Below, one piece after another: positions 60,779 to 61,193 of a stretch of 64,000 bases of DNA. Every line of letters starts with the position of its first letter. Within the stretch, counting starts at the first letter, position 1. Source of the stretch: Escherichia coli (GTDB taxonomy: Bacteria > Pseudomonadota > Gammaproteobacteria > Enterobacterales > Enterobacteriaceae); the NCBI RefSeq assembly GCF_046105845.1, contig NZ_CP151004.1, one strand, 5' to 3'. The notes under the pieces were generated by a model that worked only from the letters and a program-made list of their open reading frames with translations, was not told the origin of the DNA and did no database searches. A program made the position numbers and the translations under genes.

Positions 60779-60982
60779 TTAAACCATCACCAGCGATAAC
60801 TCTTTGCCAAGCGCCTTTGCCGCGAGCTGGACGGCGTCGATTTTTGTCGCATGGTGCAAATTAAATAGGCGAGTAATCTCCTGTTTAGGTTTGCCAATTC
60901 GTCTGGCTAACTCTTGCTGAGTGATTTCTGACTGTAAAAAAGCATTTAACAGCAATACCTTAGAGGCGACGCTCAAAGGCAC
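60779..60982 (-). pseudogene. hicB: hicB-like antitoxin remnant: 67-codon ORF covering only the C-terminal HTH DNA-binding domain; HicB N-terminal domain and hicA absent
   Basis: Track ORF with GTG start; in-frame stop 12 codons upstream; only ~210 bp separate it from yncJ, too little for hicA plus the HicB N-terminal domain. Confidence 0.5.
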
Positions 60983-61193
60983 TTCAATAAAGTGATCGTG
61001 ACTATTTAATGGCGAAGTTTATCTCCGTGTGTAATGTGCTCGAAAATAGCACTTAATCGCCGCAACGGCAGAATGCAATGCAAAATCAGGAAGGAAGATT
61101 CCAGAATTTCTTTGCGCTAATTTGCAAAACTGAATAATAACCTAAAGAAACTATCGGCATCATAGCGGTAAAAGGTAAGAAAAAGGTGGCAGG

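Follow-up and report, generated by a model that had tools for sequence, protein, structure and literature searches.

A single 445-bp deletion leaves a probable relic of the hicAB toxin-antitoxin module between ydcR and yncJ in Escherichia coli

What does a 67-codon open reading frame encoding a helix-turn-helix (HTH) segment represent, when it stands alone at the chromosomal site that carries the type II toxin-antitoxin (TA) module hicAB in Escherichia coli K-12? A sequence-only reading of the window (the whole 64,000-nucleotide stretch of E. coli DNA analysed here) had offered two answers: that this lineage never acquired the full module, or that the toxin gene and the N-terminal antitoxin domain were deleted, leaving a possibly functional small DNA-binding protein. 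The features on which the question turns are the following.

59294-60700, minus strand: ydcR, which flanks the 67-codon frame on one side.
60779-60982, minus strand: the 67-codon frame with a GTG start, from the list of open reading frames, with the translation MPLSVASKVLLLNAFLQSEITQQELARRIGKPKQEITRLFNLHHATKIDAVQLAAKALGKELSLVMV.
60779-61015, minus strand: hicB remnant of 237 nt, which corresponds to K-12 hicB from codon 61 to codon 138 with the stop codon after it and includes the whole HTH_3 domain (by translation, Pfam and a match to PDB 6hpb_B).
61016-61017, no strand: deletion junction, where positions 1918-2362 of the K-12 locus sequence (L001) are missing, with 1 nt (G) of microhomology (by alignment).
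61017-61022, no strand: retained half-site of the palindrome GTAAACA-n4-TGTTTAC, the probable hicO (by inverted-repeat search), with a window-specific C>T at 61022.
61019-61021, minus strand: in-frame TAA closing the hicB frame upstream, within the retained flank (GGTAAAC in K-12, GATAAAC in the window).
61023-61193, no strand: retained intergenic DNA, the upstream region of both hicA and the divergent yncJ in intact strains (by alignment).
61194-61424, plus strand: yncJ, the flank on the other side.

The description of the locus that came with the two answers holds. The 67-codon GTG frame lies between ydcR and yncJ and carries an HTH domain (Pfam HTH_3, E 5e-8, on the remnant), and the distance from its GTG to the ATG of yncJ, given earlier as about 210 bp, measures 211 nt (60983-61193). 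The in-frame stop placed 12 codons upstream of the GTG is the TAA at 61019-61021: the minus-strand translation reads R-stop-T-S-P-L-N-S-H-D-H-F-I-E-V-P-L-S-V-A-S-K onward, with the 12 sense codons T to E (T S P L N S H D H F I E) between stop and GTG. Homology to HicB extends 11 codons past the 67-codon frame, and the protein encoded by the remnant is identical at every position (100% amino-acid identity) to HicB residues 61-138 in PDB 6hpb_B, with matches also to 6hpc and 6u0i. Full-length K-12 HicB matches PF15919 at residues 3-67, whereas the Pfam search of the remnant gave HTH_3 alone and no match to the HicB N-terminal domain. A tblastn search with K-12 HicA against the whole 64-kb window likewise returned nothing in the interval or elsewhere (best E 0.32 over 9 aa), so that the reported absence of hicA and of the HicB N-terminal domain stands. 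No known sRNA was found in the interval by an Rfam scan of 60600-61500. Just downstream of yncJ, at 61425-61464 on the minus strand, the same scan gave a sub-threshold naRNA4 match, with 24.9 bits where the gathering score is 59.5; this is probably a palindromic element of the REP type.

The breakpoints were fixed by aligning three sequences, those of the window, K-12 and strain 536. Relative to K-12 the window carries a single, gap-free deletion of 445 bp, with the same junction in strain 536; in K-12 BW25113 the same flanks lie 445 bp farther apart, and the interval is annotated as hicB (417 nt) and hicA (177 nt). The two loci are thus not of equal length, and the extra 445 bp of K-12 gave no blastn match in the 64-kb window. 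One end of the deletion lies in hicB codon 60/61, the other within a palindrome, 44 bp ahead of the hicA start; the deleted stretch comprises hicB codons 1-60, the 45-bp hicA-hicB spacer, all of hicA and 44 bp upstream of the hicA GTG. Of the two answers first proposed, it is the loss of the toxin and the N-terminal antitoxin domain that the alignment bears out. In HicB it is the N-terminal, partial RNase-H-like domain that binds and neutralises HicA. A single illegitimate deletion took out the toxin gene together with the HicA-binding domain (HicB codons 1-60), and the loss of toxin and toxin-binding domain in one step is a viable route to losing a TA pair.

The alternative, that the HTH frame is the ancestral state and that other lineages later gained hicA and the N-terminal domain, draws on the shortness of the interval and on nothing else. 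Against it, the remnant consists of exactly the C-terminal 78 residues of K-12 HicB: the HicB frame continues 11 codons past the open reading frame and stops abruptly at the codon 60/61 junction, and half of a perfect palindrome remains at that junction. The outgroup E. marmotae, moreover, has rlhA - yncJ - hicA - hicB (138 aa) - ydcR, with the module intact and in the same order at the same site. Because the outgroup carries it there, intact hicAB is, on this comparison, evidently the ancestral state of the yncJ-ydcR site for the genus. We regard it as next to impossible that this lineage never had the full module.

The deletion also reaches into the region that controls hicAB in intact strains. 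Published descriptions give hicAB two promoters, the upstream of which, P1, is CRP-S/Sxy-dependent (PMC7167474, PMC6957337, PMC10865869, PMC11594946), while the transcript from P2 is cut short at the ribosome-binding site of hicA (PMC7167474) and hicO is an inverted repeat in P2, near the hicA start (PMC10865869, PMC6957337). Counting from the hicA GTG in K-12, a Shine-Dalgarno (SD) sequence GGGAGG lies at -10 to -5, a -10-like TATACT at -24 to -19, and a perfect palindrome, GTAAACA-CTAA-TGTTTAC, at -50 to -33. The TATACT is about 7 nt upstream of the SD, which agrees with a P2 transcript truncated at the hicA ribosome-binding site (PMC7167474). Read together with these secondary descriptions (PMC7167474, PMC6957337, PMC10865869), the K-12 sequence makes TATACT the probable P2 -10 box and the palindrome the probable hicO. 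Everything from -44 inward is deleted, including the SD, TATACT and palindrome positions -44 to -33, and for this reason the putative P2 -10 box and one palindrome arm are gone. The retained arm reads GTAAAC in other carriers of the deletion and ATAAAC in the window, and is the source of the in-frame TAA. If P2 and hicO are correctly placed, the window lacks the autoregulated P2 with intact hicO that characterises a HicAB module. The DNA kept at 61023-61193 may retain P1/CRP-S sequences (a candidate palindrome, GTGCT-n7-AGCAC, lies at 61036-61052) as well as the yncJ promoter. Read-through transcription of the remnant from this retained P1 region may occur, and a scan with sigma-70 and terminator consensus sequences found nothing promoter-like directed at the remnant.

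Taken together, these observations lead us to consider the interval a non-functional relic, or pseudogene, of the chromosomal hicAB module after one 445-bp deletion, with a probability of roughly 0.88. Three of four features of a functional HicB or HicAB are missing, namely the N-terminal PF15919/PF15970 domain, an adjacent upstream hicA and an intact P2/hicO; the fourth, a domain at the C-terminus that binds DNA (HTH or RHH), is present. The surviving 78 codons of the HTH domain would have been left without start-codon context, ribosome-binding site, proximal promoter or target operator, and because these were lost the remnant would be a neutrally drifting pseudogene that is probably not expressed.

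This bears directly on the suggestion that the fragment is a possibly functional small DNA-binding protein, that is, a stand-alone HTH protein whose translation would begin at the GTG or at some non-canonical start close by, and which would serve as a small repressor of another operator or of a hicAB paralog. Such a protein has several things in its favour: the 67-codon frame is intact and identical to the K-12 domain, the HTH_3 domain is complete, HTH motifs dimerise HicB in the HicAB crystal structure (PMC10865869), and gene callers occasionally emit the 67-aa HTH frame. As the title of Manav et al. 2019 (cited in PMC11594946) has it, the HicB HTH domain is structurally stable. The translation signals point the other way. 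The GTG is the internal Val72 codon of hicB, which reads GTA in K-12 and O157, whereas most other alleles, intact ones included, have GTG; since GTG already stands at Val72 in many intact alleles, it did not evolve as a start in the wake of the deletion. No anti-Shine-Dalgarno pairing is seen in the 20 nt upstream of it (+0.3 kcal/mol, against about -7 for yncJ and ydcS), and of all NTG triplets in the window 82% show pairing at least as good. The missing SD is weak evidence on its own and not decisive, because the neighbouring ydcR also lacks one. To these are added the loss of the hicA-proximal P2 -10 box and of half of the probable operator, and the promoter scan described above.

Conservation of the 67-aa frame in related strains, which would be expected of a functional protein, was not found: in other carriers of the deletion it is broken or mutated. 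We compared the 78 codons in six intact alleles (K-12, O157, 746, 19KM1831, 201609 and GN03551) and in 17 carriers. Among the intact alleles 11 codons differ, counting the stop codon, and all 11 differences are synonymous, with no non-synonymous change. The changes found in carriers include the following.

P103H: all sampled carriers of the 536/UTI89 group that still have that codon.
K127N: several carriers.
K79N: the ST131 group.
A116V: several carriers.
E95G: strain 536.
K127E and S89stop: AST20, for which PGAP notes an 'internal stop'.
Q88P: three apparent clade I strains.
A second, in-frame deletion of 144 bp within the remnant: MP1 and ChlosBP-23-1.

Carrier-specific variants comprise eight non-synonymous or nonsense changes against three synonymous ones. 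The contrast of 8:3 in carriers with 0:11 in intact alleles (Fisher one-sided p = 5e-4) is a rough one from a small sample, with events counted by eye rather than placed on a recombination-aware tree; on these counts the remnant appears to be under relaxed constraint across carriers. What would mark a TA remnant is therefore in place, partial homology with a defined truncating lesion and, within the limits of a small sample that is not tree-based, relaxed constraint. A start of its own with translation signals and conservation of the frame, as expected of a stand-alone Xre-type HTH regulator, are both lacking. PGAP, furthermore, flags a pseudogene in every RefSeq carrier annotation examined. 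On the combined weight of the internal Val start, the absent SD, the deleted promoter and operator sequences and the relaxed constraint in carriers, a function of the remnant as a small DNA-binding protein is unlikely, and its existence as a stand-alone repressor, in particular, very much so.

The copy in the window itself bears no lesion: 78 of 78 codons are intact and the protein is identical to the functional domain. A comparison with strain 19KM1831, which has intact hicAB, offers an explanation of this pristine state other than conservation. The window is identical to 19KM1831 for 998 bp to the left of the junction, a stretch that includes the whole remnant; ten SNPs then fall between 61022 and 61343, and identity resumes for 919 bp. 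The cluster takes its place among the features of the locus as follows.

61022-61343, no strand: ten SNPs relative to 19KM1831, with 998 bp on one side and 919 bp on the other perfectly identical; the probable footprint of a short recombination patch, which carried the deletion allele.

The deletion allele thus probably reached the lineage of the window on a short tract of homologous recombination; a reciprocal replacement in 19KM1831 would give the same pattern of identity and SNPs. The remnant would still be identical to a functional allele because the deletion came on a recent recombination patch, rather than through selection on the fragment, and the 998 bp of nucleotide identity to an intact allele weigh in this way against a stand-alone regulator kept by conservation. 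Five SNPs to the right of the junction (61022T, 61144A, 61152T, 61169T and 61310A) are private to the window among the sampled sequences, while 61054T, 61152T and 61343C match the E. marmotae state. These variants suggest that the patch derives from an unsampled, early-branching carrier lineage.

As for the background on which this patch lies, membership of the window in the 536 group was rejected at 96.4% identity to strain 536 over 3.7 kb, and membership in the apparent cryptic clade I at 96.3-96.6% identity. Among 5426 complete E. coli genomes, compared over 20000-40000 and 52000-64000, the closest reached 98.5-98.7% identity over 12-20 kb, and by this measure the window appears to belong to a sparsely sampled E. 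coli lineage. Set against complete E. coli genomes, it forms a mosaic of identical and divergent blocks.

A related question is whether the deletion occurred once or repeatedly. The same junction is found on clearly different flanking haplotypes (the 536/UTI89 group, apparent clade I, AST20 and the window), as it would be if the deletion had recurred independently, directed by local inverted repeats at its ends. At positions 1914-1923 and 2364-2373 of the K-12 locus sequence (L001), exactly at the deletion ends, lies a 10-nt inverted repeat, 90% complementary (9/10), CGAAGGTAAA / TTTACCTCCG, one arm of which overlaps the hicO-like palindrome. Direct microhomology, in contrast, amounts to 1 nt only, and precise deletions are not normally specified by inverted repeats; the same 600 bp contain 19 such pairs of like quality, and the repeat at the deletion ends may be a coincidence. 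Further evidence comes from position 61036, 20 bp from the junction, which is T in E. marmotae and most intact strains and carries a derived G in eight of nine deletion haplotypes: the window, strain 536, the apparent clade I strains and five metagenome contigs have the G, as does the intact strain 746, while the carrier AST20 has T. The absence of the linked G from AST20 speaks for recurrence, and its presence in the other eight haplotypes against it. The cluster of ten SNPs in otherwise identical sequence is, likewise, what import of the allele would predict, rather than a de novo deletion. We reject repeat-directed deletion as the main explanation, since chance alone often produces comparable repeats and the linked derived SNP supports a single origin; recurrence directed by the repeat CGAAGGTAAA / TTTACCTCCG and the hicO-like palindrome end strikes us as distinctly improbable. 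Most likely, we infer, a single event on a haplotype bearing the derived G at 61036 gave rise to the deletion, which was then moved by recombination. The allele is now carried by B2 reference strains, apparent clade I strains and a few other backgrounds.

The interval had been treated as specific to one lineage; the deletion turns out to be a common allele, for which a pseudogene annotation already exists. A junction-spanning probe of 60 nt, used with an E-value limit strict enough that half-matches fail, detected the identical junction in 1087 of 5426 complete E. coli genomes (about a fifth), once in each. The ydcR-yncJ flanks are present in 5416 of these genomes and K-12 hicA in 4254. Carriers include 536, UTI89, Nissle 1917, ATCC 25922, EC958/ST131 and MP1, which we take to be phylogroup B2 strains, and the junction is shared by E. 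coli STEC_7v, Escherichia sp. HH154_1D and BAAIWE01, which we assign, by assumption, to cryptic clade I. An exact-match scan of GTDB species representatives with both 61022 variants of the junction gave no match. The PGAP entry for the remnant, in strain 536 among others, reads 'hicB, incomplete; missing N-terminus', a pseudogene class common to all 15 carrier genomes with RefSeq annotation examined. MP1 and ChlosBP-23-1 have the label 'HicB family antitoxin', as do two further strains among 40 spread-sampled carriers. The loss of hicAB from phylogroup B2 has been stated in a phylogenomic preprint (bioRxiv 10.1101/486399), and this general statement is all that our literature search for an explicit description of the truncated hicB in UPEC returned.

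Several other variants of the locus were seen in the course of these surveys. About 85 of the 5426 genomes have neither hicA nor the 445-bp junction. In some genomes a larger deletion took both the hicB remnant and yncJ, for example in FDAARGOS_943 (NZ_CP065615.1), where the first 92 nt of a 701-nt probe match and the annotation passes from ydcR directly to rlhA. In E. coli G12 (NZ_CP129272.1) a complete hicB is separated from ydcR by an extra, N-terminally truncated copy of the gene (L013, 1137-1490); this copy bears the annotation 'HicB family antitoxin' (117 aa), has about 92.6% nucleotide identity to hicB codons ~18-138, and represents a partial tandem duplication of the antitoxin. Three metagenome/Logan contigs (L018, 1159-1595; L019, 922-1358; L021, 779-1215) have an intact hicA and a hicB broken by a 1-nt deletion, at a different position in each. 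Because this deletion interrupts hicB, gene callers emit a 69-aa N-domain frame on these contigs, together with the same 67-aa HTH frame as in the window. The 1-nt deletions could be assembly errors or independent frameshifts that part the two antitoxin domains.

A more adventurous account would combine the mobility of the allele with a residual function: an old 445-bp deletion allele moved between lineages on short recombination tracts as loss of HicA was advantageous and, where the HTH domain is pristine, yields an orphan repressor by read-through from P1. We give this account little credence, and retain the reading of the interval as a non-functional hicAB relic.

The relic can be placed beside known systems at increasing distance. 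It shares with K-12 hicAB (hicA/yncN and hicB/ydcQ; PDB 6hpb, 6hpc, 6u0i) the same site, ydcR - hicB - hicA - yncJ - rlhA, and corresponds to HicB residues 61-138. Unlike K-12, the window is without hicA, the PF15919 domain, the hicA SD, the P2 -10 box and half of the palindrome that is probably hicO. With the RefSeq hicB pseudogene of 536, UTI89, Nissle 1917, ATCC 25922 and ST131 it has an identical junction and extent, and belongs to the same allele class, but it is free of the lesions of the 536/UTI89 group (P103H, K127N, K79N and others). Chromosomal TA loci in E. coli are known to decay by deletion and nonsense mutation (review, PMC7167474). Cases such as ccdO157 (Mine et al. 2009 and Fiedoruk et al. 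2015, as cited in that review, PMC7167474) resemble the present one in that a module at a conserved site is lost by deletion or point mutation and remnants stay, and as far as the review's account of them goes there is no difference in kind. The same is true of the natural toxTA deletions in Haemophilus influenzae (PMC6957337), where a chromosomal TA module is lost and remnants stay.

The hicB scar is thus ordinary and already known, both as a PGAP pseudogene and through the published loss of hicAB from B2. It is a clean and well-bounded example of the safe loss of a TA pair: one step took out the toxin together with that half of the antitoxin which binds it, and the orphaned DNA-binding domain is seen decaying afterwards. 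In practical terms, the 67-codon frame should be annotated as a hicB pseudogene and not as a gene, and PCR or pangenome surveys that score hicAB as absent in B2 are detecting the 445-bp scar. More generally, the presence of one scar on several haplotypes would illustrate how a deletion allele spreads by recombination within E. coli.
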